Position numbers and translations under genes: made by a program
Source of the DNA: Eubacteriales bacterium
Lineage (GTDB): Bacteria > Bacillota > Clostridia > Oscillospirales > CAG-272
Assembly (NCBI GenBank): GCA_045644045.1
Contig: JAZRGD010000068.1
Coordinates: 1 to 54,045, forward strand
Direction of reading: 5' to 3'
DNA length: 54,045 nt
Shown: positions 10,353 through 41,025 of the stretch, in pieces
How positions within the stretch are numbered: the stretch's first letter is position 1
Layout of the letters: each line of letters begins with the position of its first letter
Notes under the pieces: model-generated
What the model was told of the DNA's origin: nothing
Database searches by the model: none
The model's input: the letters and a program-made list of their open reading frames with translations, nothing else

Positions 10353-10377
10353 TTTCTTTTATTCCTTTTTGTAAACT

Positions 10378-11625
10378 TTAGTTTGCGTTTTTCAGCTTTA
10401 TCATTTCAGCCGCCGCAGAAAGAATGCCAAGCTTGCCCGACTCGTAGGTCAGGCCACCCTGCATAAAGGCGATATAGGGAGGACGGACGGGGCCGTCGGC
10501 CGAAAGCTCGAGGGACGCGCCTTGGGTAAAGGTGCCCGCCGCCATGATCACGGGGTCGTTATAGCCAGGCATATCCCAAGGCTCACAGGTGACGAAGGCG
10601 TCGATGGGCGAGCCGTACTGGATACCGCGACAGAAGGCGATGAGCCCCTCCGCCGTACCGCACCTTACCGTTTGGATGATGTCGTAGCGAGGCTCGTCCC
10701 AGCGAGGTGCGGTCTCGTACCCCAGCTTGTCAAAGACGTAGGCACACAGGTGGGCGGTCTTAAGTGCCTGCGCCACGGTATGAGGTGCGTAAAAAAGACC
10801 CTTGTACATATTTTTGTTTTGTCCCAGGCTTGCGCCGATCTCAAGACCCACGCCAGGGGCGGTGTAGCGATAGCCGCAAAGCTCCACGGCACGGGCGGTG
10901 CCCGCCAGATAGCCGCCGCATTCCGCCATGCCGCCGCCGGGATTCTTGATAAGAGAGCCGACGATGAGGTCAGCCCCCACGGCGGTGGGCTCTCTGTCCT
11001 CCACGAACTCGCCGTAGCAGTTGTCCACCATCACGAAGGCGTCGCTGACGGCGCGCACCGCGCGCACGATCTCCCCGATCTCCTCCACCGACAGGCTCTT
11101 GCGGTCAAGATAGCCCTTGGAGCGTTGGATGAAGGCCACCTTGACAGTGGGGTCATCCTTCAAGGCCTCGGTGATGGCGGCAAGGTCCGCGCCGCCGTCG
11201 GCGGCAAGGGGAACCTCTTTATATTTCACCCCGAAATCCGCAAGAGAACCGCGGCCCGCCTCTCCCGACAGACCGATGACCTCATCTAGCGTATCGTAGG
11301 GCTTTCCCGTCAGGGCAAGCAGGGTGTCACCGGGGCGCAAAAGACCAAACAGACCGATGGCGAGGGCGTGTGTCCCCGACAGAACGGAGGAGCGGACGAA
11401 GGCCGCCTCCGCATCAAACACGCGGGCGTAAATTTTATCAAGAACGTCTCTGCCTCTGTCGTCGTAGCCGTAGCCGTCGGTAGAGGCAAACATACCGTTT
11501 GACACTCTTTCCTCGCGGAAGGCCGCCATGACCTTGGCCGTGCCGCTCTCCGCTATTTTGTCCAAGCGGGCAAACACGGGGGCAAGCTTTTCCTCCGCTT
11601 CCCTGACGATCTCATCTAACTGCAT
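10378..11625 (-). CDS. Methionine gamma-lyase family protein (YnbB / aluminium resistance type)
   Basis: GYGYDDRGRD, SGTHAL, GKPYDTL, IQRSKGY, VDNCYGEF, GSLIKNPGGG motifs. Confidence 0.9.
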   Translation of the reverse strand: MQLDEIVREAEEKLAPVFARLDKIAESGTAKVMAAFREERVSNGMFASTDGYGYDDRGRDVLDKIYARVFDAEAAFVRSSVLSGTHALAIGLFGLLRPGDTLLALTGKPYDTLDEVIGLSGEAGRGSLADFGVKYKEVPLAADGGADLAAITEALKDDPTVKVAFIQRSKGYLDRKSLSVEEIGEIVRAVRAVSDAFVMVDNCYGEFVEDREPTAVGADLIVGSLIKNPGGGMAECGGYLAGTARAVELCGYRYTAPGVGLEIGASLGQNKNMYKGLFYAPHTVAQALKTAHLCAYVFDKLGYETAPRWDEPRYDIIQTVRCGTAEGLIAFCRGIQYGSPIDAFVTCEPWDMPGYNDPVIMAAGTFTQGASLELSADGPVRPPYIAFMQGGLTYESGKLGILSAAAEMIKLKNAN

Positions 11626-11661
11626 TTCTATATTCCTTTCTTTTGTAAACCTTTATTTACA

Positions 11662-12966
11662 TCATTCGGGCAATCCGAGGACGAGCTTATGGAAAACGTC
11701 GCCTCTTTCCTCAAAATCTCTGTACGCATCGTAGGCGGTAGCGGCGGGCGACAGCAGGACCAAGTCCCCTGCGCTCGCCTCGGTATAAGCGGCAAGCGTG
11801 GCCGCCTCCATACTGCCACAGGCAAGATAAGGTCGCCCAAGGCGGTGCCAAAGGGCGGCAGTCTCCGCCTCGGTCTCTCCAAAAAGGTAGGCCTTTTTCA
11901 CCTTGCGCGCCACCTCCTCCAGGGGGGTGAGAGGCAAGCCCTTTCCCCTGCCGCCGAGAAGCAGCAGAACGCGCGTCCCCGCCTCTCCCTGTGCCGCCAC
12001 GGTGGCGGCGGTGCGGTTTGGGGTGGTGTCGATGGAGGAGTCGAGAAAAAAGACCCCTCTTTTTTCCGCCACCCGCTCCATACGGTGAGGAACGCCGCCG
12101 AAGCGACGGGCAAAGTCAAGCAACACGGCGGGAGTCACGGTGTCCGCAAGGGCGGCGGTGGCCGCCAATAGATTTTTAAGATTATGCTCTCCCGAAAGAC
12201 GAAGCGCACCGGCAGGAAACAGGGGCACGCCAAAGGCGTTGATATGACCCTCCTTCACACACACGTCCCCCTCGGGCAAGACGGAAAAGCGCAGGGCATC
12301 GGCGGCGGGGAAAAGTCCCACGGGCAACACCCGACGGCGGCTTTGAGACACCAGCCTTTCCTTGGCGGCGGTGTATTCCCTCATATCGGTATGCCAGTTC
12401 AGGTGGTTGGGGGTCAGGTTGGTCACCACCCCCGTGTCCACCGTCACCGAAAAATCCATCAGCTGAAAGCTGGACAGCTCCAGCACGCAGGCGTCGGTAG
12501 GACGCATCTCCGAGAGAAAGGGCAAAAGACTTCGCCCCACGTTGCCGCCCAAATAGACCGTCCTCCCTATGGCGGACAAAAGCCCCGACAGCATAGTGGC
12601 GGTGGTGGTCTTGCCGTCGCTTCCCGTGACGGCGTAGATGGGACAGGGACAAAGAGCGGCGAAGTATTCCGCCTCTCCCCACACCGTCGCCCCTCTGAGG
12701 GCGGCGCGGCATATTTTCGGGCTATCGGGACGCACCGAGGGAGAGCGAAAGACAAATTCTCCGCGCAGTTCCCCCTCGCCGCCCGTATAAAGCGGCACGC
12801 CCAAGGAAGCAAGCCACAGGGGAAGGTCGCCGAGAGCGGATCGCGGCGCATCATCAAAGGCGCGCACGCGCACCCCCTTCGCCGTCAGATGAGAAATGAG
12901 GGCGCGCCCCGATCGGCCAAGCCCCAGGACCGAGGCGGTATCGTTTCGTTTGGGTAAGGGCTTCAT
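11662..12966 (-). CDS. murD: UDP-N-acetylmuramoyl-L-alanine--D-glutamate ligase
   Basis: GLGRSG, AVTGSDGKTTT, GGNVG, LELSSFQL, NLTPNHLNWH, HRME, LLSPA motifs. Confidence 0.9.
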   Translation of the reverse strand: MKPLPKRNDTASVLGLGRSGRALISHLTAKGVRVRAFDDAPRSALGDLPLWLASLGVPLYTGGEGELRGEFVFRSPSVRPDSPKICRAALRGATVWGEAEYFAALCPCPIYAVTGSDGKTTTATMLSGLLSAIGRTVYLGGNVGRSLLPFLSEMRPTDACVLELSSFQLMDFSVTVDTGVVTNLTPNHLNWHTDMREYTAAKERLVSQSRRRVLPVGLFPAADALRFSVLPEGDVCVKEGHINAFGVPLFPAGALRLSGEHNLKNLLAATAALADTVTPAVLLDFARRFGGVPHRMERVAEKRGVFFLDSSIDTTPNRTAATVAAQGEAGTRVLLLLGGRGKGLPLTPLEEVARKVKKAYLFGETEAETAALWHRLGRPYLACGSMEAATLAAYTEASAGDLVLLSPAATAYDAYRDFEERGDVFHKLVLGLPE

Positions 12967-13057
12967 AAAAGACCTCCTTCTCGTTTGTTCCTTACTATTT
13001 TATTCGGCAAGGCGCAAAAAAGACAAAGAGGCAAGCGCATACAGCGGCTATTATATT

Positions 13058-13086
13058 ATTATATATGATTAGTACCCAAAAAGCAA
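13058..13086 (-). promoter_or_regulatory. SigA-type promoter upstream of murD
   Basis: Minus strand TTGCTT-17-TATAAT. Confidence 0.55.
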
Positions 13087-13098
13087 GGGGGCATTTGT

Positions 13099-13136
13099 AA
13101 AAAAAACACGCTTCGGGCGAGAAATCGCCCGAAGCG
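13099..13136 (-). terminator. Intrinsic terminator after the MATE gene
   Basis: CGCTTCGGGCGA-GAAA-TCGCCCGAAGCG with a T-run on the minus strand. Confidence 0.8.
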
Positions 13137-13144
13137 CGGGAATA

Positions 13145-14563
13145 TCAAGAAACCGCAAGCCTGCTTTTCTTCTTTTCTTTTTGCAATACCACGAAAATGG
13201 TGGCCAAATGCAAGCTACACACCACCACCCAAGACACGGGCCAGGAAACGATAATGCCCGAAAGAGTGTGGAACGCTTCAAGGGGAAATATGACCTTGAT
13301 CCAGAAGATGCGGAACACGCAAGCTCCGAACAGAGAGGAAAGCATGGGAACGAAGGAGCAGCCTCGCCCACGCAGATAGCCCGAAAGCACCTCCATAATG
13401 CCGCAGAGGAAATAGAGCGGCAGCACCACCGCGCCGCTTTCCCTCGCCCTTGCCAGCACCAGCTCCACGCCGGGCAAGGAGGTATCGATGTAAAGGGAGC
13501 AAAGAGGGGTAAAGAACACCCAAAGGAGCATGCCCACCCCGAAGCCGACGGTGGCCACCCAGAAGAGGGCGGAAAAGAGCGAGGTCTTCATACGGTCTCT
13601 TTTTCCGGCACCGTAATTTTGTCCCACAAAAGTCAAGGTGGCTTGCAAAAAGGCGTGCATGGCAACGTAAACGAAGTTTTCAACGGAGGAGGAGATAGTG
13701 CGCCCCGTCACCGTATCGGTGATGACCGCGCCCGAGGGAAGGGGGGTGGCGGGGAAGGAATTGACCGCCGTTTGAATGATCACGTTGGCAAGCGCAAAGC
13801 AGCAGCCTTGAATGCCCGAGGGCACGCCGATGCGAAGGACACTGCCGAGAACACGGCGATGGATCCGCAATCTACGAAGGAAGAAACGGTAGTCCGTCTT
13901 ACTTCTTGCCAGACAGACCATAACGGCGATAGCCGACAGATATTGCGCGGTGGCGGTAGCCAAGGCCACTCCCAGCACGCTCAGATCGAAGACGATCACG
14001 AAAACCAAATTCAATCCCACGTTGATGAGTCCCGCCGCCGCGAGGATATAAAGAGGCAGTCTCGAATTGCCCACCGAGCGCAGAATGGTGGAGCCGAAGT
14101 TGTACACCATGGTGGCGGGGAAGGCGGCGAAATTGATCTTCATATAAAGCGACGCCATCTCAAGGATCTCGGACTGGGTGCCCATCAGAACAAGCAGAGG
14201 GCGGCTGAACAGAACGCCCACGAGACCGAAAAGGATACCGCAAATGAGAGAGAGCGCAACGGAGGTATGCACCGCCTCGCCCAGCTCCTTTTTGTGGTTC
14301 GCGCCGAACTGCTGTGCCACCACCACCCCCGCGCCTGCTGAAAGACCCAAGGCAAAATTAGTCAGGAGACCGGAAAGAGAGGAGGTGGAGCCCACCGCCG
14401 CCAGGGCGTTGGGGTCGCCCGAAAACTGTCCCACCACCACCTGGTCGGCCATGTTGTAGAGGATCTGCAGCATACCCGAGAGAATGATGGGAACGGCGAA
14501 TGCCAAAATGGGAAAAAAGATCGGGCCTGTGGTAAAATCCCTTTGTTTTTTTGCCACTGTCAA
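13145..14563 (-). CDS. MATE family efflux transporter
   Basis: Many hydrophobic segments; LQILYNMADQVVVG, ALAAVG, LRSVGNS, GQNYGAG motifs; start TTG 14563 or GTG 14557. Confidence 0.9.
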   Translation of the reverse strand: MTVAKKQRDFTTGPIFFPILAFAVPIILSGMLQILYNMADQVVVGQFSGDPNALAAVGSTSSLSGLLTNFALGLSAGAGVVVAQQFGANHKKELGEAVHTSVALSLICGILFGLVGVLFSRPLLVLMGTQSEILEMASLYMKINFAAFPATMVYNFGSTILRSVGNSRLPLYILAAAGLINVGLNLVFVIVFDLSVLGVALATATAQYLSAIAVMVCLARSKTDYRFFLRRLRIHRRVLGSVLRIGVPSGIQGCCFALANVIIQTAVNSFPATPLPSGAVITDTVTGRTISSSVENFVYVAMHAFLQATLTFVGQNYGAGKRDRMKTSLFSALFWVATVGFGVGMLLWVFFTPLCSLYIDTSLPGVELVLARARESGAVVLPLYFLCGIMEVLSGYLRGRGCSFVPMLSSLFGACVFRIFWIKVIFPLEAFHTLSGIIVSWPVSWVVVCSLHLATIFVVLQKEKKKSRLAVS

Positions 14564-14635
14564 AAAAGCTCACTACCTTTCGTCAGCGAACGGGAGCCGA
14601 GTGCCCTTGCGGACGCTCGGCTCTTTTTCAAGTAA

Positions 14636-16018
14636 TCAAAATCCGAAATATTCCTTGGCGTTGTAGTAGCAAACGCCCTCGACGATCTGCTTCAGGTATT
14701 CCTCGTCGGCAGGATATTCGCCCTTCTCTACCCACTCACCGATCAGGTTACAGAAGATGCGGCGGAAATACTCGTGTCTGGGATAGGAAACGAAGGAGCG
14801 GCTGTCGGTGAGCATACCCACAAAATGAGCCAGCATACCCAGGTTGGCGAGGGCCTTCATCTGGGCCTCCATACCGTCTCTCTGATCGTTGAACCACCAG
14901 CCCGAGCCAAACTGGATCTTGCTCTTGTAGGGAGGAGCTTGGAAGTTGCCCAGCATGGTTGCGAGAACGTAGTTGTCGCAGGGGTTGAGGTTGTAAAGAA
15001 TGGTCTTGGGCAAGCACTCCTCGCGCTCAAGGGAATCAAGGAAGCGGGAGGTGGTGTAGGCGGCGCTGTAATCAGCCACCGAGTCACAGCCCACGTCGGG
15101 GCCGAGGGCCTTGTAGATGCGGGTGTTGTTGTTGCGGATGGCACCCATATGCAGCTGCATGGCCATGCCCTTTGCCGCATAAAGCTTTGCGCAATGGCGG
15201 AGAACGGCGGTCTTGTAGGCCTCCTCCTCCTCGTGGGTGATGGCTTTACCCGTCATCTTCTTGTCGAAGATCTTCTCGGCGTCGCCCTCGGCGTAGGGCA
15301 CGTAGTCGAGACCGTGGTCGGAGACGAGACAGCCGTTGTCGTAGAAGTAATTCACTCTGTCCTCAAGGAAGCTTAAGAGCTCCTTGTAGCTCGAAACACC
15401 CGTCTGCTCGATATAGCCGAGGAAGGGCTCCTTGCCGATCTCCACGCACTTGTCGGGGCGGAAGGTGGGCAGGACCTTGGTGGCAAACTCCTCCTTGGGC
15501 AAAGCGGCGATCTGCTTGTGATAGCGCAGGTCGTCAAGGGGATCGTCGGTGGTACAAAGTGCCGTTACATTCGAGCGGCTGATGAGGCCTCTCGCGCTGT
15601 AATCGGGACGGGCAAGAAATGCGTTTACCTTCTCGTAAATGGCGGCGCAGTTCTTGGGGGTGAGCATATCGTAGGTGTCGAAATACTCCGCAAGCTCAAG
15701 GGCGTTCCAGTGCAAGAGGGGATTGCCGATCAAGAGGGGCAAGGTCTCCGCCCACTTGGCAAACTTCTCTTCGTCAGGCGCGTCGCCCGTCATAAATCTC
15801 TCCTCCACACCGTGGGTACGCATCTGACGCCACTTGTAGTGGTCACCGCCAAGGAACAGGTCGGTGGCGTTACGGAAGCGGTGGTCGTCCGCGATCATCT
15901 TGGGGGAAAGATGGCAATGGTAGTCAATGATGGGCAGGAGCTTGGCATAGTCGTGGAACAAATGCTTTGCCGTTTCGCTGTGGAGCATAAAGCTGTCGTT
16001 AATAAGGGGCATGGTCAT
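14636..16018 (-). CDS. uxaC: Glucuronate (uronate) isomerase
   Basis: PIIDYHCHL, GDHYKWR, CTTDDP, GSGWWFND, GMLTDSRSF.SYPRHEYFRR motifs. Confidence 0.96.
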   Translation of the reverse strand: MTMPLINDSFMLHSETAKHLFHDYAKLLPIIDYHCHLSPKMIADDHRFRNATDLFLGGDHYKWRQMRTHGVEERFMTGDAPDEEKFAKWAETLPLLIGNPLLHWNALELAEYFDTYDMLTPKNCAAIYEKVNAFLARPDYSARGLISRSNVTALCTTDDPLDDLRYHKQIAALPKEEFATKVLPTFRPDKCVEIGKEPFLGYIEQTGVSSYKELLSFLEDRVNYFYDNGCLVSDHGLDYVPYAEGDAEKIFDKKMTGKAITHEEEEAYKTAVLRHCAKLYAAKGMAMQLHMGAIRNNNTRIYKALGPDVGCDSVADYSAAYTTSRFLDSLEREECLPKTILYNLNPCDNYVLATMLGNFQAPPYKSKIQFGSGWWFNDQRDGMEAQMKALANLGMLAHFVGMLTDSRSFVSYPRHEYFRRIFCNLIGEWVEKGEYPADEEYLKQIVEGVCYYNAKEYFGF

Positions 16019-16050
16019 ATCTCCTATCTATATCTATGTTTTTCCCCTCC

Positions 16051-16079
16051 ATTATATCCCCATCTGCCAAAAAATGCAA
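16051..16079 (-). promoter_or_regulatory. SigA-type promoter for uxaC
   Basis: Minus strand TTGCAT-17-TATAAT. Confidence 0.6.
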
Positions 16080-16150
16080 GAGTAAAACAAAACTTTTTTC
16101 CTCGCATTTCCATTTATTTTCCTTTTATTGCTTTTCTTTCACACTTGTTC

Positions 16151-16179
16151 TTGACAAATGGAGGAAAATGCGGTACAAT
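16151..16179 (+). promoter_or_regulatory. SigA promoter for kdgK-fucU
   Basis: TTGACA-17-TACAAT. Confidence 0.75.
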
Positions 16180-16229
16180 AAGAACGAAAAATGCGGTACG
16201 CCGCAAAAAAACAGAAAAGGAAGAAGAAA

Positions 16230-17252: not shown

Positions 17253-17275
17253 GGCATCCGAAAAGGAGAACGAAT

Positions 17276-17728
17276 ATGTTAAAGGGCATTCCCGCTATCC
17301 TCTCCCCCGATCTCTTAAAGGCTCTTTGCGAGATGGGTCACTCCGACCGTCTTTGCATTGCCGACGGCAACTTCCCCGCCGAGACCATGGGCAAGAACTG
17401 CATTGTCATTCGTGCCGACGGCCACGGCGTACCCGAAATTCTGGATGCCATTCTCACCGTATTCCCTCTCGACACCTACGTAGAAAAGCCCATGAACCTG
17501 ATGGCTCTGATGGAAAGAGACGTGGAAAAGGTGGAGACCCCCATTTGGGAGGAATACAAAAAGATCGTGGCCAAGCACGACGAGCGCGGCGCGGACGCCA
17601 TCGGTGAGATCGAGCGTTTTGAATTCTACGAGGAAGTCAAAAAGAACTGTCACGTGATCATTGCCACCGGCGAAAGCGCGGTGTACGCCAACGTTCTTTT
17701 GCAAAAGGGCTTGGTGAAAAACGCGTAA
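17276..17728 (+). CDS. fucU: RbsD/FucU family mutarotase
   Basis: MLKGIP.ILSP.LL..L.EMGH.D....ADGNFP, ERFEFYE, ATGE...YANVLLQKG. Confidence 0.88.
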   Translation: MLKGIPAILSPDLLKALCEMGHSDRLCIADGNFPAETMGKNCIVIRADGHGVPEILDAILTVFPLDTYVEKPMNLMALMERDVEKVETPIWEEYKKIVAKHDERGADAIGEIERFEFYEEVKKNCHVIIATGESAVYANVLLQKGLVKNA

Positions 17729-20956
<3,228 letters not shown>

Positions 20957-20994: not shown

Positions 20995-21036
20995 AAAGAA
21001 TGCCCATTTCGCGCTTGCGCGAAATGGGCATTCTTT
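20995..21036. terminator. Terminator after GH2
   Basis: AAAGAATGCCCATTTCGCGC-TT-GCGCGAAATGGGCATTCTTT, perfect 20-bp arms. Confidence 0.8.
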
Positions 21037-21105
21037 GTAAATTATTCTTTACATTCAAAAGGGAGGGCTTTTATTCTTCCCTTACAAATTCCGTGTCATT
21101 CAGCG

Positions 21106-23756: not shown

Positions 23757-23800
23757 GATATAAAACTCCTTTTATATAAATTATTTTTGATTACTACAAC

Positions 23801-23836: not shown

Positions 23837-24487
23837 TTATCGTCCCATCCACGCCACGTCTCCGCCGTCCGACAGATAGGAATCCAAGGCGTAGAACAAG
23901 GGCGTCACCGTCTCCCCCTCGCACAGGTAGGCGGAGATCGACGCGTTGGCGGGCCAGTTGATCTCCCGCGCCCGCTCGACGTCCCAGCCTCTTGCCAACG
24001 TCTCAAAGGTACGGACAGGGGTGGCGTGGGAGGCGATCAGCACCGTCTTGCCGGGGTTTTCGGCGGCAATGCGCAAGACCTCCGCGCGCACACGGTGGGC
24101 AAGTGCCTTCACGCTCTCCCCCTCGTTGGGGCAGGCGTTGCCAAGGTCGGTGCGCCAGGCTCCAAACTCCGCCCGATATTCCTTTTCTATATCGGAAATC
24201 AGCATATTCTCCCACTTTCCCGCGTAGATCTCTCGCAGTTCGTCGGAGGTGTCAATAGGAAGCGTGGGCATATGAGACAGGGCAAGCCGCGCCGTCTCAT
24301 AGGCGCGGCAAAGGGGGCTGGCATACGCCACGTCGGGGCGAATGCCCATTTTCTCAAGATAGGCCGACACGTCCCGTGCTTGCCCTCTGCCGCGCTCGGT
24401 CAAGGGCAGGTCGGTGTGGCCGAGAAAGCTGCGAACGGCGTTGCCCTCACTCTCCCCATGCCTTATCATGTAAACTAATGTTTTCAT
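23837..24487 (-). CDS. Histidine phosphatase (phosphoglycerate mutase) family protein
   Basis: IRHGES, SPLCRAYETA, LREIYAGKWE, ASHAT motifs. Confidence 0.9.
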   Translation of the reverse strand: MKTLVYMIRHGESEGNAVRSFLGHTDLPLTERGRGQARDVSAYLEKMGIRPDVAYASPLCRAYETARLALSHMPTLPIDTSDELREIYAGKWENMLISDIEKEYRAEFGAWRTDLGNACPNEGESVKALAHRVRAEVLRIAAENPGKTVLIASHATPVRTFETLARGWDVERAREINWPANASISAYLCEGETVTPLFYALDSYLSDGGDVAWMGR

Positions 24488-31409: not shown

Positions 31410-31531
31410 ATCGAATTGCTCCTTTCGCGGCAAAGCCGCAACACATCCGTACCCTTTAGTATCCCTCACACCCTCACTTCCATACTCACCCTGCGGTGAA
31501 CGGAGGGGGAAGGACACGAGAATTACAATAC

Positions 31532-31560
31532 ATTATAGCATTAAACGGCGCAATTGTCAA
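31532..31560 (-). promoter_or_regulatory. SigA promoter for the NSS transporter
   Basis: Minus strand TTGACA-17-TATAAT with extended TG. Confidence 0.8.
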
Positions 31561-31610
31561 GCAAAAAGCGACAAAAGAAAGAAAAAGGGCGGAAAGCGTT
31601 TGGTTTATAT

Positions 31611-31654
31611 CGGGGGGCTTTTCAAGGGAAAGCCCCCAAGCCTTTTTGGAAAAG
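31611..31654. repeat. Dispersed palindromic repeat, copy 1 (copy 2 at 45991-46040, inverted)
   Basis: CGGGGGGCTTTTCAAGGGAAAGCCCCCAAGCCTTTTTGGAAAAG matches the reverse complement of 45991-46040. Confidence 0.7.
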
Positions 31655-31662
31655 GAAATACC

Positions 31663-31952
31663 GTAGGGACCGACGTCGATCCGCCTAACGCGGATCGAAT
31701 CGCCGCAAAGCGGCGTTTAGCCTCCCTCCGAGAGCGAGGTGGCACGGGGCTTGCGCCGTGGCGGGAGGAGTGGGCGGCAGTAGCGGTGCGCGCGAAGGAA
31801 CGGGAGCTTGCAAAGAAAAATGAGCAAGCTTTGCTTTTTACAAACCCATTACCTTGCGCTTTTATTTGCTCTCGCTCACTCCTTCCACCACTCCGCAGTC
31901 CCCCTCCCTCTCGGAGGGAGGCTTGGTTTGCATCCGCCCGAGGCGGATCGAA
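31663..31952. mobile_element. Non-autonomous REP/MITE-like composite element
   Basis: Starts GTAGGGACCGACGTCGA; 21-bp inverted repeats with one mismatch (31719-31739 and 31903-31923); flanking direct-repeat hairpins ATCCGCC-N4-GCGGATCGAA; no transposase. Confidence 0.6.
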
Positions 31953-31992
31953 GCGGCGCGAAGCACCGTATGGCATCGCTACGCCTCAAACC

Positions 31993-32024
31993 AAAAAAAA
32001 GAGGCTGTCGCAAGCGACAGCCTC
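31993..32024 (-). terminator. Intrinsic terminator after the small Cys-rich ORF
   Basis: Minus strand GAGGCTGTCGC-TT-GCGACAGCCTC-TTTTTTTT. Confidence 0.85.
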
Positions 32025-32035
32025 AGGGTGGTATG

Positions 32036-32131
32036 TTAGCCGTTGCAGCAGCAACAGAAGACGAGAACCAGAGCCAGGATGATGACCCAGGTGCAGTTGT
32101 CGTCGAAGAGATGGCAAAGACAGTTGTTCAT
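32036..32131 (-). CDS. 31-aa cysteine-rich hydrophobic peptide (probable spore-associated small protein)
   Basis: MNNCLCHLFDDNCTWVIILALVLVFCCCCNG*; AGAAAGGA RBS; host-like GC3 codons; its own terminator. Below the ORF-track cutoff. Confidence 0.75.
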   Translation of the reverse strand: MNNCLCHLFDDNCTWVIILALVLVFCCCCNG

Positions 32132-32202
32132 AGAGGTCCTTTCTGCCACGGTGGGCGTGCGGCACGCGCCGCGTTTTTTGAAGGGGTCACCCTTCACATT
32201 AC

Positions 32203-32229
32203 CATCTTATGCGGCAAAGGACTTTTGGT
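32203..32229 (-). promoter_or_regulatory. SigK-type promoter for the small peptide
   Basis: Minus strand AC-N16-CATAAGATG fits the mother-cell SigK consensus AC-N16-CATANNNT. Confidence 0.5.
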
Positions 32230-32273
32230 TACCGTTTTCATTCTTTCCTCTTTAATGCAAATAATTATTTACA

Positions 32274-32878: not shown

Positions 32879-32907
32879 TTGACATCTCTTGCTTTTAATG
32901 ATATACT
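32879..32907 (+). promoter_or_regulatory. SigA promoter for the YccF-domain gene
   Basis: TTGACA-17-TATACT with extended TG. Confidence 0.75.
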
Positions 32908-32957
32908 ATCGTTACCGACACTGCTCGGAATACTGATACGTAAGGAGATCTCACGTT

Positions 32958-33317: not shown

Positions 33318-33354
33318 GCCCTTCCCCCTGCGCCTCGGCGCGGGGGGCTTTTTT
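33316..33354 (+). terminator. Terminator after the YccF-domain gene
   Basis: GC-rich imperfect hairpin AAGCCC...GCGCC-TC-GGCGC...GGGCTT plus T-run. Confidence 0.65.
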
Positions 33355-33422
33355 ATTATAACAATTTTATCGCAAAATTGCAAGTTTTTTTATTCTTTCC
33401 CCCGCTTTTTTATGCAAGCCCC

Positions 33423-33451
33423 TTGACAAACGGCGAAAATTGCGGTATAAT
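33423..33451 (+). promoter_or_regulatory. SigA promoter for the aromatic amino acid cluster
   Basis: Perfect TTGACA-17-TATAAT. Confidence 0.85.
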
Positions 33452-33501
33452 ATCCCCATCAAAAACAAGTTAACACTGTTAACCACAAGGAGGACACCCC
33501 C

Positions 33502-34692: not shown

Positions 34693-34707
34693 AAAGGAAA
34701 AAAGAAA

Positions 34708-35796
34708 ATGGATAAGCTGCAAAGGGCCAGAGAGACCATCGATCGCATAGACGCGGAGATGGCAAGGCTTTTCACCGAAAGAATGGGCGCGGCCGCCGAG
34801 GTGGCCGCCTATAAAAAGGAGCACGGTCTCCCCATCTTGGACGCTGCCCGTGAGGCGCAGGTCATCGAAAACGGTGCCGCGCGCATTGAGGACGAGGCCT
34901 TAAAGGAATACTACGTGACCTTCTTGAAGAATATGATGGCTGTCTCCCGCAGCTATCAGAGTCAGCTTCTTGACGGTATGCGCGTAGCCTACAGTGGCAC
35001 CGAGGGTGCCTTTGCTCACGCCGCGGCGGGCAAGGTGTTTCCCGAGGCGAAAAGGATCGGCTACCCCGACTTTGCCGCCGCCTATCGGGCAGTGGAAAAC
35101 GGTGAGTGCTACGCCGCCGTCCTCCCCATCGAAAACTCCTTCGCGGGTGAGGTGGGACAGGTCACCGACCTGCTCTTCTTCGGCTCTCTGTCGGTGTCGG
35201 GCATTTACGATCTCACGGTGACCCAGAATCTGCTGGCAAAGCCCGACGTCACCATCTCCGAGATCCGACGGGTGCTAAGCCACCCCCAAGCCCTCAGCCA
35301 ATGCGCCGATTACATCCGCAAGCACGGCTTCGCCACCACCGAAATGGAAAACACCGCCCTTGCCGCCAAGGCGGTAGCCGAGGGAGACGACCCCACCGTC
35401 GCCGCCATCGCGGGCGAGGAGGCGGCGGCCTGCTTCGGGCTGGCGGTGCTTGACCACAGCATCAACGAAAGCGCGGTCAATACCACCCGCTTCGCGGTCT
35501 TCACCCGCGCCCGCCATCCCCTTGCCCCCTCCGTGGGACAGGCGGGACGCTTCATTCTTCTGTTCACGGTGCTGAACGAGGCGGGGGCACTGGCCAAGGC
35601 CATCGACATCATCGGTCGCTTCGGCTTCAATATGCGCACTCTCCGCAGCCGTCCCGTCAAGGACGCCATGTGGAAGTATTACTTCTACGCGGAGGCGGAG
35701 GGTAACGTGGACAGCGATCAAGGCAAGGCGATGCTGGCCGCCCTCGGTCAGTTCTGCGAATCCTTGAAGGTAGCGGGTACCTATACAGATAACTGA
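34708..35796 (+). CDS. pheA: Bifunctional chorismate mutase / prephenate dehydratase
   Basis: N-terminal AroQ-type CM (RETIDRID...ERM...KK); LPIENS, SHPQALSQC, NTTRF; ACT domain with SRP. Confidence 0.93.
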   Translation: MDKLQRARETIDRIDAEMARLFTERMGAAAEVAAYKKEHGLPILDAAREAQVIENGAARIEDEALKEYYVTFLKNMMAVSRSYQSQLLDGMRVAYSGTEGAFAHAAAGKVFPEAKRIGYPDFAAAYRAVENGECYAAVLPIENSFAGEVGQVTDLLFFGSLSVSGIYDLTVTQNLLAKPDVTISEIRRVLSHPQALSQCADYIRKHGFATTEMENTALAAKAVAEGDDPTVAAIAGEEAAACFGLAVLDHSINESAVNTTRFAVFTRARHPLAPSVGQAGRFILLFTVLNEAGALAKAIDIIGRFGFNMRTLRSRPVKDAMWKYYFYAEAEGNVDSDQGKAMLAALGQFCESLKVAGTYTDN

Positions 35797-35830
35797 TTTT
35801 GTAAACCTTGGTTTACCAAGCGGAGGAAAT

Positions 35831-36904
35831 ATGACAAATTCCGTCAAAAGGCTTTCGGTGCGACTGCCAAGCGAAAGCTATGATATTCTCATTGGACGCG
35901 GTCTGCTTGCCATAGCGGACGAGCATCTTTCTCTTGCGAGACGGGTGCTGATCCTAACCGATGACGGCGTGCCCACCGCGTACAGCGAGGCGGTGGCGGC
36001 GGCGGTCACGAGAGCGGGCGGTGCGCCCACCCTCTTCGTCATCCGTCAGGGTGAGGAGAGCAAATCCCTCTCCACCGCCGAGGCTGTGCTTGCCCGTATG
36101 CTCGACGCAGGCTTCACCCGCACCGACTGCCTCGCGGCCGTGGGCGGGGGGATCGTTGGTGACCTTGGCGGTCTCGTCGCCTCCCTGTATATGCGCGGCG
36201 TGGATTTTTACAACCTTCCCACCACCGTTTTGTCTCAGGTGGATTCCTCCATCGGCGGCAAGACCGCCGTGAATCTCGGCGGCATCAAAAATGCCGTCGG
36301 CGCGTTCTATCAGCCCAAGCGCGTCCTCATCGACCTTGACACCTTGGAGACCCTCCCCGAGCGACAGGTCTCCCAAGGGCTTGCCGAGGCCTTGAAGATG
36401 TCCCTCACCCACAGCCCCTCCCTCTTTGCCCTGTTCGAGTCGGGAGACCCCCTCGCCCACATGGAGCAGATCGTCTACGAATCCCTGGACATCAAGCGTC
36501 GCGTGGTAGAGGCGGATGAGAAGGAGATGGGTCTCAGGCGCGTATTAAACTTCGGTCACACCGTGGGACACGGCATTGAGAGCCGCTTTGGCATCGACGC
36601 CGACAAGCGCGCGGAGGAAAACACCCGTGAGACGGGCTTTTATCACGGCGAGTGCGTCGCCCTCGGTATGCTTCCCATGTGCGAGGGTGCGTTAAGAGAA
36701 CGGCTGAAAAGGGTGCTGAAAAGCCTTTCCTTGCCCACCGAGGTCTCCCTCACCGCCGCCGAGATCACCGCCGCCATGCGCCACGACAAGAAGGCCACGG
36801 AGACGGGCGTGAAGGCTGTCCTCGTGGAGGAGGTAGGCTCGTTCGTTATGAAGGAGTTGTCCTTCGCCCGGCTTGAAGCCCGTATTACCGCAACCTTTGG
36901 TTGA
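35831..36904 (+). CDS. aroB: 3-dehydroquinate synthase
   Basis: GEESKS, GGGIVGDLGG, PTTVLSQVDSSIGGKT, LNFGHT, HGECV, DKK. Confidence 0.96.
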   Translation: MTNSVKRLSVRLPSESYDILIGRGLLAIADEHLSLARRVLILTDDGVPTAYSEAVAAAVTRAGGAPTLFVIRQGEESKSLSTAEAVLARMLDAGFTRTDCLAAVGGGIVGDLGGLVASLYMRGVDFYNLPTTVLSQVDSSIGGKTAVNLGGIKNAVGAFYQPKRVLIDLDTLETLPERQVSQGLAEALKMSLTHSPSLFALFESGDPLAHMEQIVYESLDIKRRVVEADEKEMGLRRVLNFGHTVGHGIESRFGIDADKRAEENTRETGFYHGECVALGMLPMCEGALRERLKRVLKSLSLPTEVSLTAAEITAAMRHDKKATETGVKAVLVEEVGSFVMKELSFARLEARITATFG

Positions 36905-36952
36905 CATTTTAACGAATTTTCGTCTTTCGCGCAAGCGAAAGCAGGAGCGCAT

Positions 36953-38050
36953 ATGAAAAACACGTTTGGACAAAGCATTGCCGTGACCCTCTTTGGAGAA
37001 AGCCACGGCCCCGCCATCGGCGCGGTCATCGACGGGCTTGCTCCCGGCATTCCCGTGTCGGAGGAGGCCATCGCCGCCGCCCTTGAAAGGCGGCGTCCCG
37101 CAGGGCGTTTTTCCACCGCTCGCGTGGAGAAGGATGCCTTTTCTCTGATCAGCGGCGTGTATAAGAGCAGGACCACGGGCACCCCCCTGACCATCCTCAT
37201 TCCCAACGAAAACACCCGTAGCGGTGACTACGACAAGGCCGAGCGTCTTGCCCGTCCCGGTCACGCCGACTATGCGGCGACGTGCAAATACCACGGCTTC
37301 GAGGATCCCCACGGAGGCGGACATTTCTCGGGTCGCATCACCGCCGCGCTGGTGGCGGCAGGGGCGATCGTCAGCGAGGCTCTTGCCCAAAAGGGCATCG
37401 GCGTATATCTCCGCATTGCCGAGATCGCGGGTGTGAAGGACGCGCCCCTCACCGATCCTCTCCGTCAGCTTCCCCCTCTTAAAGCCTCGGCCTTCCCCGT
37501 TTTCGACGGGGAACAGGGCGAAAAGATGAAGGAGGCCATCCTCACCGCCGCGAATGACGGCGACAGCGTGGGTGGCGTGCTTGAGGGCGTGGTCACAGGC
37601 ATCCCCGCAGGCGTGGGCGAGCCTTGGTTTGACAGCGTGGAGAGCGTTCTTTCCCACATATTCTTTTCTATCCCCGCCGTCAAGGGTGTGGAGTTCGGAG
37701 ACGGCTTTGCTCTCACCCGTATGCGCGGAAGCGAGGCAAACGACCCCTTGCGCAAGGGCGAGGGGGGCGTCGTCACCGCCACCAACCACGGCGGCGGCAT
37801 CAACGGCGGCATTACCAACGGAATGCCCATCGTCTTCCGTCTGGCCGTCAAGCCCACCCCCTCCATTTATAAGAAGCAAAGCACCGTCTCTTTGGAGACG
37901 GGCGAGAACGCCGAAATAGAGATCGTCGGCCGTCACGACCCCTGCGTGGTCCACCGCGCCGCCGCCGTAGCGGAGGCCGCCACCGCCTTGGCCCTTGCCG
38001 ATCTTTTGGCATCTCGCTTCGGCACCGACTATTTTTCTCCAAAAAAGTAA
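36953..38050 (+). CDS. aroC: Chorismate synthase
   Basis: FGESHG, RPGHAD, GGGHFSGR, SIPAVKG, GGINGG, KPTPSI, GRHDPC. Confidence 0.97.
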   Translation: MKNTFGQSIAVTLFGESHGPAIGAVIDGLAPGIPVSEEAIAAALERRRPAGRFSTARVEKDAFSLISGVYKSRTTGTPLTILIPNENTRSGDYDKAERLARPGHADYAATCKYHGFEDPHGGGHFSGRITAALVAAGAIVSEALAQKGIGVYLRIAEIAGVKDAPLTDPLRQLPPLKASAFPVFDGEQGEKMKEAILTAANDGDSVGGVLEGVVTGIPAGVGEPWFDSVESVLSHIFFSIPAVKGVEFGDGFALTRMRGSEANDPLRKGEGGVVTATNHGGGINGGITNGMPIVFRLAVKPTPSIYKKQSTVSLETGENAEIEIVGRHDPCVVHRAAAVAEAATALALADLLASRFGTDYFSPKK

Positions 38051-38066
38051 ACAAGGAGTTAGCATT

Positions 38067-39311
38067 TTGGAATACGGCTGTATTGGGGCGAAGCTCGCCC
38101 ATAGCTTTTCAAAGGAGATCCACGCCCGTCTTGCGGACTACCGTTACGAGCTGACCGAGGTAGCCGCCGCCGACCTCCCCGCCTTTCTGTGCGCGGCGGA
38201 CTTTCGCGCCATCAACGTGACCATTCCCTACAAGCAGGACGTGATCCCCTATCTTTCGTGGATCTCGCCCGAGGCGGCGCGCATCGGCGCGGTCAACACC
38301 GTCGTCAACCGTGACGGCAGGCTTTACGGCTACAACACCGACTTTTTCGGTATCCTTTCCGCCATGAAGCGGATGGGCTTTCCCTCTCTTGAGGGAAAAA
38401 AGGTGCTGATCCTCGGCACGGGAGGCACCTCTCTCACCGCCATGGCGGTGGCGGAGCATATGTACGCCCGTGAGATCGTCAGGGTCAGCCGCACCGCCAA
38501 GGAGGGCGCGGTGACCTACGCCGAGGCAAGGGAGAAGCACACCGACGCGCAGATCCTGTTCAACGCTTCCCCCTCGGGTATGTACCCCCACGCCGAGGAC
38601 GCCCCCCTGCTGTCTCTTGCCGATTTCCCCGCCTTGGTGGGGGTCTTCGACGCGGTCTACAATCCCCTTCGCACCCGTCTCATCCTTGAGGCGGAGGCCT
38701 TGGGCATCTCCGCCATCGGCGGTCTTTACATGCTGGTGGCCCAGGCCTTCCGCGCCGTGGAGATCTTCCTTGATACCGCCCTTGACCCCGCCCTGATGGA
38801 AAGCACCTTTGCCTCGGTGCTGGGAGAAAAGGAAAACACCGTGCTGATCGGCATGCCCGCCTCGGGCAAAAGCTCGGTGGGACGCGCCCTTGCCGAAAGG
38901 CATGGTCGCCGCTTCCTTGACCTTGACGCCCTCACCGTGGAAAGAGCGGGCTGTCCCATCTCCGAGATCTTCGAGGTCAAGGGAGAGACGGCGTTCCGCG
39001 ACCTGGAAAGCGAGGTCATCGCCTCCGTCGCCGCCGAAAACGGCTTGGTCATCGCCACGGGCGGCGGTGCCATCCTCCGCGCGGAGAACGTCAGACGCTT
39101 AAAGCAAAACGGCCGTCTTTATTTTCTCGACCGTCCCCTTCCGCTTCTGACCCCCACCGCCGACCGTCCCACCGCCTCCGACAAGGAGGCCATTTGCCGC
39201 CGCTTTGAGGAGAGATACCCCATCTACACCGCCGTGGCGGACGAAAGGATCGAGGGAGACGGAAGCGTGGCGGAGGTCACAGAACGACTTGAAAGGAGTC
39301 TATCCCTTTGA
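38067..39311 (+). CDS. aroE: Fused shikimate dehydrogenase / shikimate kinase (AroE-AroK)
   Basis: HSFS, NVTIPYK, GAVNT, NTD, GTGG followed by LIGMPASGKSSVG, GETAFRDLE, IATGGG; TTG start after AAGGAG. Confidence 0.92.
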   Translation: MEYGCIGAKLAHSFSKEIHARLADYRYELTEVAAADLPAFLCAADFRAINVTIPYKQDVIPYLSWISPEAARIGAVNTVVNRDGRLYGYNTDFFGILSAMKRMGFPSLEGKKVLILGTGGTSLTAMAVAEHMYAREIVRVSRTAKEGAVTYAEAREKHTDAQILFNASPSGMYPHAEDAPLLSLADFPALVGVFDAVYNPLRTRLILEAEALGISAIGGLYMLVAQAFRAVEIFLDTALDPALMESTFASVLGEKENTVLIGMPASGKSSVGRALAERHGRRFLDLDALTVERAGCPISEIFEVKGETAFRDLESEVIASVAAENGLVIATGGGAILRAENVRRLKQNGRLYFLDRPLPLLTPTADRPTASDKEAICRRFEERYPIYTAVADERIEGDGSVAEVTERLERSLSL

Positions 39312-39757
39312 AAAAAATATTCATCATCAACGGCCCGAATCTCAACCTGCTTGGAGTGAGAGAGCCGGATATATACGGACGGGAGACCTACGACGGTCTC
39401 GTAGCTAATATCCGTCAGCATTGCCTCGCCAAGGGCGTAGAAGCGATTTTCGTGCAATCCAACCACGAGGGCGATTTGGTGGATGCCATCCATCGCGCCT
39501 ACTTTGAGGGAGCCGTGGGAGCGGTCATCAATCCCGGTGCTTACACCCACACCAGCATTGCCCTGCTGGACGCGGTGAAGGCCACCTCCCTTCCCACCGT
39601 GGAGGTGCATATCTCCGACGTGGACAGCCGTGAGGACTTCCGTCGGGTCAGCTATATCCGCGCCGCCTGCATCGCCACCGTATCGGGGCACGGAACGGCA
39701 GGGTATCCGGAAGCGGTAGACCTGCTTCTCGCCCGTGAGACGGAGGACAAGGCATGA
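39308..39757 (+). CDS. aroQ: Type II 3-dehydroquinate dehydratase
   Basis: NGPNLNLLG.REP..YG, QSNHEG, NPGAYTHTS, EVHIS, RE.FR. Confidence 0.96.
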   Translation: MKKIFIINGPNLNLLGVREPDIYGRETYDGLVANIRQHCLAKGVEAIFVQSNHEGDLVDAIHRAYFEGAVGAVINPGAYTHTSIALLDAVKATSLPTVEVHISDVDSREDFRRVSYIRAACIATVSGHGTAGYPEAVDLLLARETEDKA

Positions 39758-40965
39758 AGGTCACCGTCAGCGCGGGCAAGGCGAGAGGGACCGTCAAGGC
39801 CCCTCCCTCCAAAAGCATCGCCCACCGTCTTTTGATCTGCGCCGCCCTGTGCGACGGCGAGAGCCTTCTTTACGGCATTTCGGACAGCGACGACATGAAG
39901 GCCACCGTCTCTTGTCTTACCGCCCTCGGTGCCGTCTTTACCCGCGAGGGGGAGGGCTTGCGTGTGAGGGGCGTCGATCCCCGCGTCACCACCCCGAAGG
40001 GGGAGCTGTTTTGCAATGAAAGCGGCAGTACCCTCCGCTTCCTTTTGCCCGTGGCGTTGCTCTCGGGCACAAAGACCGTTCTCTCGGGCAAGGAGGTCTT
40101 ATTCCGCCGCCCCCTGTCGGTGTACGAGTCTCTCTGCGCCGAAAAGGGCTATTTATACGAAAAAACAGACGACACCGTCACCGTTAAGGGTCCCTTAACG
40201 ACAGGTGCTTATCGGGTAGCGGGCAATATCAGCAGTCAGTTTATCAGTGGTCTGCTCTTTGCCCTGCCTCTGTTGGACGGAGACAGCATCCTATCCATCA
40301 CTCCGCCCATCGAAAGCCGCTCCTACATCGGCTTGACCCTCGACGCCCTCGCCTCCTTTGGCGTAAAGGCCGTTTGGCAGGACGACCACACCCTCTTTAT
40401 CCCCGGCGGACAGCATTACACCCCCACCGAGGCGACGGTGGAGGGAGACTATTCGGGTGCCGTCTTCTTTGAAGCCCTCAACGCTTTGGGGGGAGAGGTA
40501 TCCGTCACGGGTCTGAAGGAGGACTCCTTGCAGGGAGACCGCGCCTATCTTCGCTTTATTCCCATGCTCACCCGTGGCACCCCCACCGTCCACATCGGGG
40601 ACTGTCCCGACCTTGGGCCTATGCTCTTTGCCCTGGCCGCCGCCAAAAACGGCGCGGTGTTTACAGGCACGGCGCGCCTTGCCCTGAAGGAGAGCAACCG
40701 CATCACCGCCATGGCGGAGGAGCTTGCGAAGCTTGGCACCACCGTCACGGTGGGCGGGGACAGCGTGGTGATCTATCCAAGCGATTTTCACGCGCCTACC
40801 CTACCTCTTTTCGGCCACGGAGACCATCGCATCGTGATGGCCACCGCCATTTTGGCCACCCTGACGGGCGGCGTCATCGAAGGGGCGGAGGCGGCAAGCA
40901 AGAGCTTCCCCGACTTTTTTGAAAAGCTTTCTTCTTTAGGCATTGCCATACGAGCCGAAGCCTAA
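39754..40965 (+). CDS. aroA: EPSP synthase
   Basis: PPSKSIAHR, NESGSTLRF, SSQFISGLL, KESNR, DHRI.M, KSFPDFF. Confidence 0.96.
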   Translation: MKVTVSAGKARGTVKAPPSKSIAHRLLICAALCDGESLLYGISDSDDMKATVSCLTALGAVFTREGEGLRVRGVDPRVTTPKGELFCNESGSTLRFLLPVALLSGTKTVLSGKEVLFRRPLSVYESLCAEKGYLYEKTDDTVTVKGPLTTGAYRVAGNISSQFISGLLFALPLLDGDSILSITPPIESRSYIGLTLDALASFGVKAVWQDDHTLFIPGGQHYTPTEATVEGDYSGAVFFEALNALGGEVSVTGLKEDSLQGDRAYLRFIPMLTRGTPTVHIGDCPDLGPMLFALAAAKNGAVFTGTARLALKESNRITAMAEELAKLGTTVTVGGDSVVIYPSDFHAPTLPLFGHGDHRIVMATAILATLTGGVIEGAEAASKSFPDFFEKLSSLGIAIRAEA

Positions 40966-41025
40966 CCACCACCCAAAATATGCAACCTTTGGTTTACATT
41001 TTTCTGATTTAGAAGGGTTTTCGCT

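Follow-up and report, generated by a model that had tools for sequence, protein, structure and literature searches.

The palindrome TGTAAA-N6-TTTACA recurs along a 54,045-nt stretch of DNA from a Eubacteriales bacterium of the GTDB group CAG-272 (assembly GCA_045644045.1, contig JAZRGD010000068.1), and the question raised by this locus is what kind of element is found so often at the ends of genes. The stretch, referred to here as the window, is contig C68 of the source genome G000, a 2.28-Mb assembly of 132 contigs with 53.6% GC. Chance, promoters, pathway operators, RNA hairpins and dispersed repeats are each weighed below. The explanation that we consider most probable, if only tentatively, is that the palindrome is the recognition site in double-stranded DNA of a putative homodimeric, genus-specific DNA-binding protein that would act at gene boundaries and not at promoters.

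Recurrence and spacing of the palindrome

The window contains three perfect copies (at 6707, 11644 and 21036) against 0.00 in 100 dinucleotide-preserving shuffles; with up to two mismatches there are ten sites against a shuffle mean of 0.85 and a maximum of 4. The recurrence described in the initial annotation therefore exceeds the shuffled background, and it holds genome-wide. Seven of the eight sites listed there are recovered at up to two mismatches; the eighth (36889) has four and, taken alone, is indistinguishable from background. Three window copies are additional to that list: 6707 (perfect) and 7626 (one mismatch), both inside genes, and a doubtful two-mismatch copy at 23759.

G000 as a whole has 16 perfect sites, 51 with one mismatch and 130 with two. 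As a spacing control, the identical hexamers were scored as inverted pairs at N0 to N14 and in everted and direct arrangements. Inverted pairs at N0-N5 and N7-N14 gave 0-3 perfect and 1-14 one-mismatch copies, compared with 16 and 51 at N6; everted and direct arrangements gave 0-2 perfect copies, and the one-mismatch counts over all control arrangements ranged from 1 to 28. Among all 6-mer arms with an N6 spacer, TGTAAA ranks second in G000, behind AAAAAA alone. On the strength of the spacing control and the arm ranking, TGTAAA-N6-TTTACA is a genuine element with dyad symmetry and a specific spacing. Among specific palindromes of the same 6+6+6 layout in G000, the runner-up is ACCTGC-N6-GCAGGT, with 13 copies.

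Two features could have produced such a pattern by accident of composition: the left arm includes the stop codon TAA, and spacers are AT-rich within a genome of 54% GC. The probability that this is the whole explanation is close to nil. No perfect copy occurs in the shuffles, the same half-sites at other spacings or in everted or direct order give at most three, matches at other spacings lack any association with stop codons (5 of 43), and 78 of 79 other genera of the family carry 0-2 copies, as in a reversed-pattern control. Compositional accident is refuted by the spacing and taxon controls.

Location at gene boundaries

Genes in G000 were called with an ad hoc codon-score caller (2027 genes, 89% coding). 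Forty-five of the 67 sites with at most one mismatch are intergenic: 14 of the 16 perfect ones and 31 of the 51 with one mismatch. Per unit length, spacers (45 sites, about 0.25 Mb) hold about 16 times as many sites as genic sequence (22 sites, about 2.03 Mb). A site is termed stop-associated when a stop codon falls within -9 to +5 nt of the motif edge. This is the case for 29 of the 45 intergenic sites, compared with 9.8% of 4000 random intergenic placements and 5 of 43 intergenic matches at ten other spacings; uniform placement within the same intervals would give 13.9. The initial annotation had placed the palindrome almost always at a gene 3' end, and the genome-wide counts bear this out.

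Most commonly, the stop TAA is formed by motif positions 3-5 (13 sites) or abuts the motif (9 sites). For fifteen of the intergenic sites a start codon is no more than 25 nt away; the usual position is 12-21 nt before it, immediately 5' of the Shine-Dalgarno sequence (SD). Eleven sites occupy an entire spacer from stop through SD to ATG, and several sit directly between a stop and an intrinsic terminator. Sites are thus found overlapping or abutting a stop, between a stop and a terminator, or just 5' of or around the SD of the next gene. At C87:14809-14826 in G000, two convergent genes end within one copy and take their stop codons from it, one TAA from each arm; the two reading frames are only 8 nt apart.

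Convergent intervals of G000 hold 14 sites (7.2 expected), co-directional intervals 28 (25.4 expected) and divergent intervals 3 (12.5 expected); the orientation of sites between convergent genes was assigned from the nearer gene. Divergent spacers are the most AT-rich class, yet they are depleted of sites. The strong sigma-70-type matches in the window (33423, 31560, 32879, 23829 and 16151) coincide with no site. The earlier statement that the palindrome does not overlap SigA promoters is supported by these promoter matches and by the divergent regions; it was also remarked there that one site lies where no gene starts, and 21036 lies between convergent gene ends. A promoter reading, with TTTACA as the -35 element, was rejected: the oriented profile has no -10 signal, and one weak match (9 of 12, at 21048) uses a site. 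The palindrome is an element of gene ends and junctions and not of promoters.

An AT-rich 18-mer may gather at stops, SDs and terminators as the sole spots where coding sequence and promoters are spared. In spacers of at least 120 nt, 7 of 20 sites are stop-adjacent against 1.4 expected, and this excess of stop contact suggests more than mere tolerated placement.

Within genes, 22 sites with at most one mismatch are found at N6 compared with a mean of 3.3 at ten other spacings. These copies lie in intact open reading frames (ORFs), in two reading frames and in unrelated proteins; an excess of this kind indicates a cause at the DNA level. Sites are only mildly clustered among contigs (p = 0.03; 132-contig assembly), and those of a relative, G016, are spread over many contigs among the matches listed.

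Distribution and turnover in related genomes

Relatives were sampled as one genome per species; they are mutually related, so counts across them are not independent. Within the same GTDB genus, 21 of 24 sampled genomes contain perfect copies (0-47 each). Sixteen other genera of the order have 0-1 perfect copies each, and among 79 other genera of the family, 78 have 0-2, as in the reversed-pattern control, while one has 7. A single GTDB genus, and possibly a sister genus (G058), accounts for the range of the motif.

Ten genomes were re-scanned at up to one mismatch against the reversed-pattern control, and all ten exceed it, about 4- to 27-fold (11-186 sites compared with 3-16). The highest counts are those of G020 (186 sites, 46 perfect; control 9), G006 (111, 23 perfect; control 16) and G017 (108, 47 perfect; control 4), followed by G011, the species closest to G000 (65, 24 perfect; control 8), and G002 (50, 17 perfect; control 5). 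G021 has 41 sites (control 9) and G018 has 15 (control 4). Perfect copies are absent from G024 (35 sites; control 4), G016 (29 sites; control 3) and G022 (11 sites; control 3). No single stationary process would account for the ratio of perfect to imperfect copies, given how widely it varies from species to species.

The mix of placements in G011 is the same as in G000. Most sites in G020 are found in longer 3' spacers, next to a second repeat, ACCCCGTGTTAAATT; since the caller was trained on G000, starts in other species may be misplaced, which applies to placements in G017 and G020. Found in both orientations, and in most cases forming the loop of a variable stem, the second repeat is separated from many TGTAAA sites by 15-35 nt (L041, L043, L045, L047, L072, L073, L078, L081, L082, L084, L085 and L090). 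It is present in 23 copies in 60 kb of G020 loci, compared with about 17 per Mb in G000.

Among 40 sites of G011, 16 have colinear flanks in G000, and 7 of these 16 keep the motif at up to two mismatches (4 genic and 3 intergenic). The intergenic ones are C113:12550, C21:15618 and C132 near 14390 (G000 coordinates). Two junction sites of the murD region are absent in G011 and in most of 29 relatives. Conservation at orthologous junctions, a point raised in the initial annotation, is thus partial: some sites are kept, and those of the murD region and of the aromatic amino-acid (aro) operon are not.

Two junctions illustrate how sites may come and go. In G017, the arms of one site stand around an SD where G000 has an equal SD-to-ATG distance and no arms; given the equal distance, the G017 site arose by substitution. 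Between aroC and aroEK, G011 has a site, while G000 has only the left arm and the SD, with a 16-nt length difference. Such comparisons indicate that sites arise in place through substitutions and small indels; some persist between species and many turn over.

Symmetry, constraint and the level of recognition

Deviations in one-mismatch sites are unevenly spread over half-site positions 1-6 (19, 1, 22, 2, 1 and 6; chi-square p = 3e-10). They concentrate at positions 1 and 3, while G2, A4 and A5 are nearly invariant, which defines a constrained core, GYAAA-N6-TTTRC. This core has 89 copies at N6 (53 intergenic) compared with 14-36 at other spacings, with a small excess at N7. Uniform decay would not produce such a position-specific pattern of mismatches.

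The centre is A/T-rich, and when sites are oriented by transcription its preferences are mirrored: C/G/T at position 7 mirrors G/C/A at position 12, and A at 8-9 mirrors T at 10-11. This favours recognition as DNA, because an RNA loop has no reason for reverse-complement symmetry. Flanks outside the 18 bp are not conserved.

Alternatively, the transcribed palindrome might form a small hairpin in 3' untranslated regions (UTRs), intercistronic spacers and 5' UTRs, bound by an RNA-binding protein or nuclease, with a role in tuning translational coupling or initiation, mRNA processing or 3'-end stability. The locations would suit such an element. Transcription is expected across nearly all intergenic sites, which lie either at stops (29 of 45) or 12-21 nt before starts beside the SD, and divergent, largely untranscribed regions are depleted. 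In G017 and G011 the 6-nt centre often contains the SD, and the ATG follows the motif at 1-5 nt; three G000 sites continue into long terminator hairpins on the same symmetry axis. The structures themselves argue the other way, and we regard an RNA-level element as unlikely. Folding of the 18-mers gives only -1.6 to -5.6 kcal/mol (mean -3.1), and the stem sequence is conserved while the loop is variable, the opposite of most protein-bound RNA hairpins. The excess also extends into coding sequence.

Covariation is equally lacking in G000, where complementarity at positions 7/12, at 8/11 and in the flanks is no higher than in column shuffles. Depending on orientation, the most frequent variant (T3>C, or A16>G as its mirror image) would place either G·U or mismatched C·A in the stem. 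Oriented by transcription, it gives G·U in 6 of 8 intergenic sites of G000 and in 2 of 10 of G011; the combined count, 8 G·U to 10 C·A, therefore reveals no G·U bias. A scan of the window with Rfam 15 (E up to 0.5) returned Gut-1 at 3172-3245 as its sole match and none at motif sites. The stable stems and compensatory or G·U changes of intrinsic terminators and structural hairpins are not seen, and 3 of 45 sites lie in real terminator stems. Symmetry of the centre, position-specific tolerance and the absence of G·U bias favour a protein that reads double-stranded DNA. It is from these statistics that we infer the binding of any protein to TGTAAA-N6-TTTACA sites.

A dispersed repeat as an alternative

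Short palindromes can also spread as repeats. The element might be a dispersed extragenic palindrome like the repetitive extragenic palindromes (REPs) of E. coli or dRS3 of Neisseria, created or propagated by the action of a recombinase or transposase, or by 'molecular drive' through recombination. Such copies would be tolerated only in transcribed spacers at gene ends and have little function of their own; the arms would be enzyme-binding sites and the 6-bp centre the crossover region. This explanation is on the unlikely side, but it has more in its favour than the others set against protein binding.

The architecture is that of dRS3, in which short conserved inverted ends of 6 bp enclose a variable centre in many dispersed intergenic copies; dRS3 is ATTCCC-N8-GGGAAT, a component of neisserial intergenic mosaic elements and a proposed recombinase site (PMC1797815). 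The placement is that of REPs: extragenic, in operon spacers or at the 3' ends of genes, more often than expected at convergent and co-directional junctions and less often at promoters. E. coli REPs are likewise often near termination codons, and nearly half are positioned to stall ribosomes just before the termination codon (PMC12306157). A repeat family would also agree with the genus-specific consensus, the range of perfect copies from 0 to 47, a perfect to one-mismatch ratio from 0 to 0.77, the many empty orthologous junctions and the sites at terminator apexes. The G020 sites 15-35 nt from ACCCCGTGTTAAATT recall mosaic repeat arrays.

The enzymes and the copies themselves do not fit. The Y1 transposase (PF01797, IS200/IS605-like), which includes the REP-associated tyrosine transposases (RAYTs), is found in 11 of 41 genomes, and its presence is uncorrelated with motif copy number: it was not found in the richest genomes, G000, G017 and G020, but occurs in G022 and G024, which have no perfect copies. 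Six Y1 loci have no nearby motif at up to one mismatch, and one of the six, L113, has a single two-mismatch match. A RAYT-type REP was rejected on these grounds. No IS110-type transposase was found in G000. Mismatches are position-specific, unlike those of uniformly decaying copies; at least one site arose around an existing SD with no change in length; in-gene copies lie within intact reading frames; and the flanks past 18 bp are unconserved. At two G011 sites (L256 and L260) the flanks map to non-adjacent places in G000, in an assembly too fragmented for breakpoints to be called.

Pathway operators and the aromatic amino-acid genes

The consensus is, letter for letter, the gammaproteobacterial TyrR box, and three window matches lie in the aro operon. 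These two observations, together with a conserved site at an XRE-family gene described below, are the case for an operator of a classical pathway or global factor (TyrR-like, or TnrA/GlnR-, CcpA- or BirA-like) that would control the downstream genes. Such an operator is very unlikely.

The operon has the order aminotransferase, pheA, aroB, aroC, aroEK, aroQ, aroA and 3-deoxy-D-arabino-heptulosonate 7-phosphate (DAHP) synthase. It has its own promoter at 33423-33451, a perfect TTGACA-17-TATAAT with no TGTAAA box, and the boxes are at internal junctions. The pheA / aroB spacer contains TGTAAACCTTGGTTTACC (35800..35817, one mismatch), 3 nt past the stop and 13 nt before the ATG; the aroA / DAHP-synthase spacer contains TGCAACCTTTGGTTTACA (40981..40998, two mismatches), 15 nt past the stop and 27 nt before the ATG. 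The third match, CGCAACCTTTGGTTGACA (36889..36906), spans the aroB stop; with four mismatches it is not countable as a member on its own, and it resembles the AACC..GGTT variants at 40981 and at C88:10696 in G000. In G011 there is no site at pheA / aroB or at aroA / DAHP synthase, and the aro operons of G049, G022 and G014 have none at all.

A separate palindrome, GTTAACAnTGTTAAC, follows the aro promoter (about 33423-33480). Promoter and palindrome are both conserved in G011 (L092, upstream of the aminotransferase gene), and GTTAACAnTGTTAAC is probably the real operator of the operon. A similar word is present near the start of the TetR gene in G011.

A search of G000 with PF00158 (Sigma54_activat), the sole Pfam family searched for a TyrR-type regulator, gave five weak matches, all generic AAA+ proteins; the best reaches 31 bits (E 2.3e-7), and a ComM/Mg-chelatase gene is among the five. 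The 75 genes that flank the other intergenic sites, 54 of them with a Pfam match, have no common theme; they include AzlCD, TrkAH, a penicillin-binding protein, Asd, SpoIIIA, ArgJ/B/D, PurM/N, RNase R, MutY, glycosidases and leucine-rich-repeat proteins. The link to TyrR made in the initial annotation does not survive these results, and a TyrR regulon was rejected: the AAA+ matches are weak, the aro sites are off the promoter and unconserved, and the flanking genes are functionally mixed, ranging over transport, sporulation, purine and arginine synthesis, the cell wall and glycosidases. Avoidance of promoter regions and enrichment in convergent spacers tell against any classical operator. Other factors are no better candidates; cre is 14 bp and the GlnR/TnrA site 17 bp, and the spacings of cre and TnrA consensus sequences differ from that of the present motif.

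The best-conserved site found is that of an XRE-family gene (C109:2293-2895 in G000), whose product has an HTH_3 domain and a further, unassigned C-terminal part. Two one-mismatch sites flank its promoter, and orthologues in G056, G054, G023 and G020 keep a site between the -10 element and the SD, which makes five species with G000. The XRE-family protein was considered as the binder and rejected. Firstly, 15 other homologues lack the site, including those of the site-rich G017 and G011. Secondly, 40 of the family's 80 genera have full-length homologues, while the motif occurs only in this genus and possibly one sister genus. Thirdly, the family-wide candidate operator is a different palindrome, CTACAAA..GAGAAWTTCTC, which lies upstream of the -35 element of the XRE gene and is common beyond the genus. 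It takes the form CTCCACAAAA-N-GAGAATTTCTC, or CTCTACAAATTGTAGAG in another genus (C109:2100-2292 in G000; orthologues L101, L102, L103, L106 and L289-L291), and is likely to be an autoregulatory operator common to several genera. The XRE-family gene is regarded as a conserved target and not as the binder.

Individual sites in the window

The 30 window genes that were checked match their earlier names, among them murD, the lipid kinase, TetR, pheA, aroB, aroC, aroE/K, aroQ, aroA and DAHP synthase. On the minus strand, the perfect copy TGTAAACCTTTATTTACA (11644..11661) fills the intercistronic spacer between murD and a gene for a pyridoxal-phosphate (PLP) enzyme. There is no gap between it and the murD stop (offset 0), and on its other side the SD follows closely, with the next ATG 18 nt beyond its end; the orthologous junction in G011 lacks it. 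The stop of the PLP-enzyme gene (10378-11625, minus) is overlapped by TGTAAACTTTAGTTTGCG (10370..10387, two mismatches), which lies 17 nt upstream of the ATG of the gene at 9783-10352 (minus). Scanning metagenomes with a conserved 23-mer from the PLP-enzyme gene gave 118 stretches, of which 80 had DNA; none was close to G000, and the best match has 83% identity over 117 nt.

The perfect copy TGTAAATTATTCTTTACA (21036..21053) lies between a convergent lacZ-type gene (end 20956) and a gene for an ATP-binding cassette (ABC) ATPase (end 21146), and directly adjoins a GC-rich, terminator-like hairpin that was read from the sequence at about 20996-21032. On the minus strand, TGAAAACATTAGTTTACA (24469..24486, one mismatch) lies 1 nt past the lipid-kinase stop; it overlaps codons 1-6 (MKTLVY) of a histidine-phosphatase gene, and its membership is uncertain. 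Two copies are genic: a perfect one at 6707..6724 in a dusB-like gene (reading VKNTLQ), which belongs to the in-gene excess at N6, and a one-mismatch one at 7626..7643 in the gene at 7341-8579 (reading CKESFT), which has a one-mismatch counterpart at the orthologous place in G011. The two-mismatch copy at 23759 has the otherwise invariant G2/C17 altered and is probably no more than an SD flanked by A/T.

The TAA of the TetR-family gene is abutted by TGTAAATAATTATTTGCA (minus-strand reading; 32256..32273, one mismatch); a 15-codon ORF with a strong SD (32192-32239, minus) starts 14 nt further on. This ORF and a hairpin precede a gene for a 31-residue Cys-rich peptide, MNNCLCHLFDDNCTWVIILALVLVFCCCCNG (32036-32131, minus), which has a near-identical counterpart in G011. 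Together they could be a leader-peptide arrangement.

Other features of the window and genome

The Gut-1 RNA (RF01706) is matched at full length in the spacer after the gene at 1682-3028 (window 3172-3245, plus strand; 66 bits compared with a gathering score of 50). A weaker copy (38.6 bits) is present in G020 at L082:987-1062, about 70 nt from a TGTAAA site. By these covariance scores, Gut-1, an orphan metagenomic RNA motif, can be placed in this genus.

GC-rich palindromic repeats of the form CCTCCCTC-N3-GAGGGAGG occupy the region 31410-32030 (e.g. 31903-31921). Arms of CTCCCT, CTTCCC, CCTTCC and CCTCCC with 5-7-nt spacers occur in 24-28 copies each genome-wide; these CTCCCT-type repeats are a second, unrelated palindromic repeat family of G000. 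The region 4001-6000, which covers the gene at 3982-5748 (minus), has 38.8% GC compared with about 57% around it and may have been acquired horizontally.

Possible role of a boundary-binding protein

Roughly 70-190 sites are present per genome. If a homodimer binds at these boundaries, it might hinder RNA polymerase as it passes between cistrons or transcription units, as a roadblock or an insulator. Alternatively, the bound dimer might structure the nucleoid, at places where neither promoters nor coding sequence would be disturbed. Any of these actions (roadblock, insulator or nucleoid structuring) is conjecture. The initial annotation offered a global regulator acting at junctions or a chromosome-organising site. 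A protein that reads double-stranded DNA fits both in general terms, while a TyrR-type regulator is unsupported; the data do not favour either of the two over the other.

A more specific version would have the genus-specific dimer punctuate one to two hundred cistron and operon boundaries and set the level of read-through to the next or the convergent gene. Its sites would be gained and lost quickly as operons evolve. This version is doubtful. To our knowledge, no comparable sequence-specific boundary system has been described in bacteria. Among the papers listed by a full-text literature search there was likewise no description of the motif in Clostridia and no boundary system of such kind; this is weak evidence of absence.

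Several observations weigh against recognition by a double-stranded DNA-binding protein. This analysis identified no binding protein, and classical operators sit at promoters, where TGTAAA-N6-TTTACA sites do not. A simple roadblock terminator is awkward, because a dimer 0-5 nt past the stop would stall the polymerase before the stop is transcribed. Three G000 sites lie at the exact apex of long terminator hairpins (flank extension of at least 7 bp compared with 0.08 expected), as does one further site in G011; a role at the level of the hairpin accounts for these more easily. In G017, 11 of 15 intergenic sites are start-adjacent, often with the SD in the centre (as placed by the caller trained on G000). 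This start coupling, together with the tight stop coupling, suggests a link to translation for which a DNA-only model has no need. Recognition of double-stranded DNA by itself leaves two main observations unaccounted for: the terminator-apex cases and the proximity to stops and starts. In addition, the share of perfect copies varies from 0 of 29 (G016) and 0 of 35 (G024) to 47 of 108 (G017), which fits bursts and decay as well as it fits differing selection. Finally, gene positions rest on the ad hoc caller, which was checked for the 30 window genes and the 75 flanking genes (54 with a Pfam match).

If a protein does bind the sites, common uncultured gut Clostridia would possess a lineage-specific system at gene ends and not at promoters, a regulatory or chromosome-structuring layer that would be missed by standard regulon inference, which looks upstream of genes. 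If the motif is instead a functionless repeat family, the range of REP/dRS3-like elements would extend to Clostridia, with a form that is much shorter and independent of RAYTs. The motif is in addition a practical marker, which is diagnostic for the genus and flags gene boundaries. Its fast turnover offers a handle on the birth of short protein-binding sites, by substitution around a stop or SD or by small indels.

Comparison with known systems

Known elements resemble the palindrome in different respects, and the REP and TyrR-box families each depart from it in at least one defining feature. By architecture, the nearest is dRS3. Both are short, dispersed, lineage-specific intergenic palindromes with 6-bp inverted ends, a variable centre and many copies, and neither is read as a promoter operator; the G020 sites adjoin a second repeat family, as in the neisserial mosaics. 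The present motif differs in that its centre is 6 nt and not 8 nt, it is AT-rich and not GC-rich, and it is tied to stop and start codons. No TGTAAA arrays were seen in G000, and searches for Y1 and IS110 found no associated recombinase or phage.

By placement, the nearest are REPs and the bacterial interspersed mosaic elements (BIMEs) that they form. Both kinds of element are extragenic, at 3' ends and in intercistronic spacers near stops, with a species- or genus-specific consensus and variable copy number. REPs are about 35 nt long and GC-rich and form stable hairpins, while the present motif has 18 bp and pairs weakly; unlike REPs, it has no RAYT correlation, and it has position-specific mismatches and in-frame copies within genes.

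The TyrR box has the same 12 fixed letters and the same spacing, and three window copies are in an aromatic amino-acid operon. The differences are that no TyrR-type domain stands out, the sites are off promoters and unconserved in the aro operon of relatives, and the flanking genes are unrelated.

The sites matS, NBS and SBS, bound by MatP, Noc and SlmA, are chromosome-organising palindromes. They too are dyad-symmetric, present in tens to hundreds of copies, independent of promoters and in part located in genes, and each is served by a lineage-specific protein, as the present motif may be. Their hallmark is a distribution bias relative to the replication origin and terminus. The known sites are contiguous palindromes of 12-14 bp that lie mostly in genes, whereas the present motif has two arms around a 6-nt centre and is about 16 times denser in spacers.

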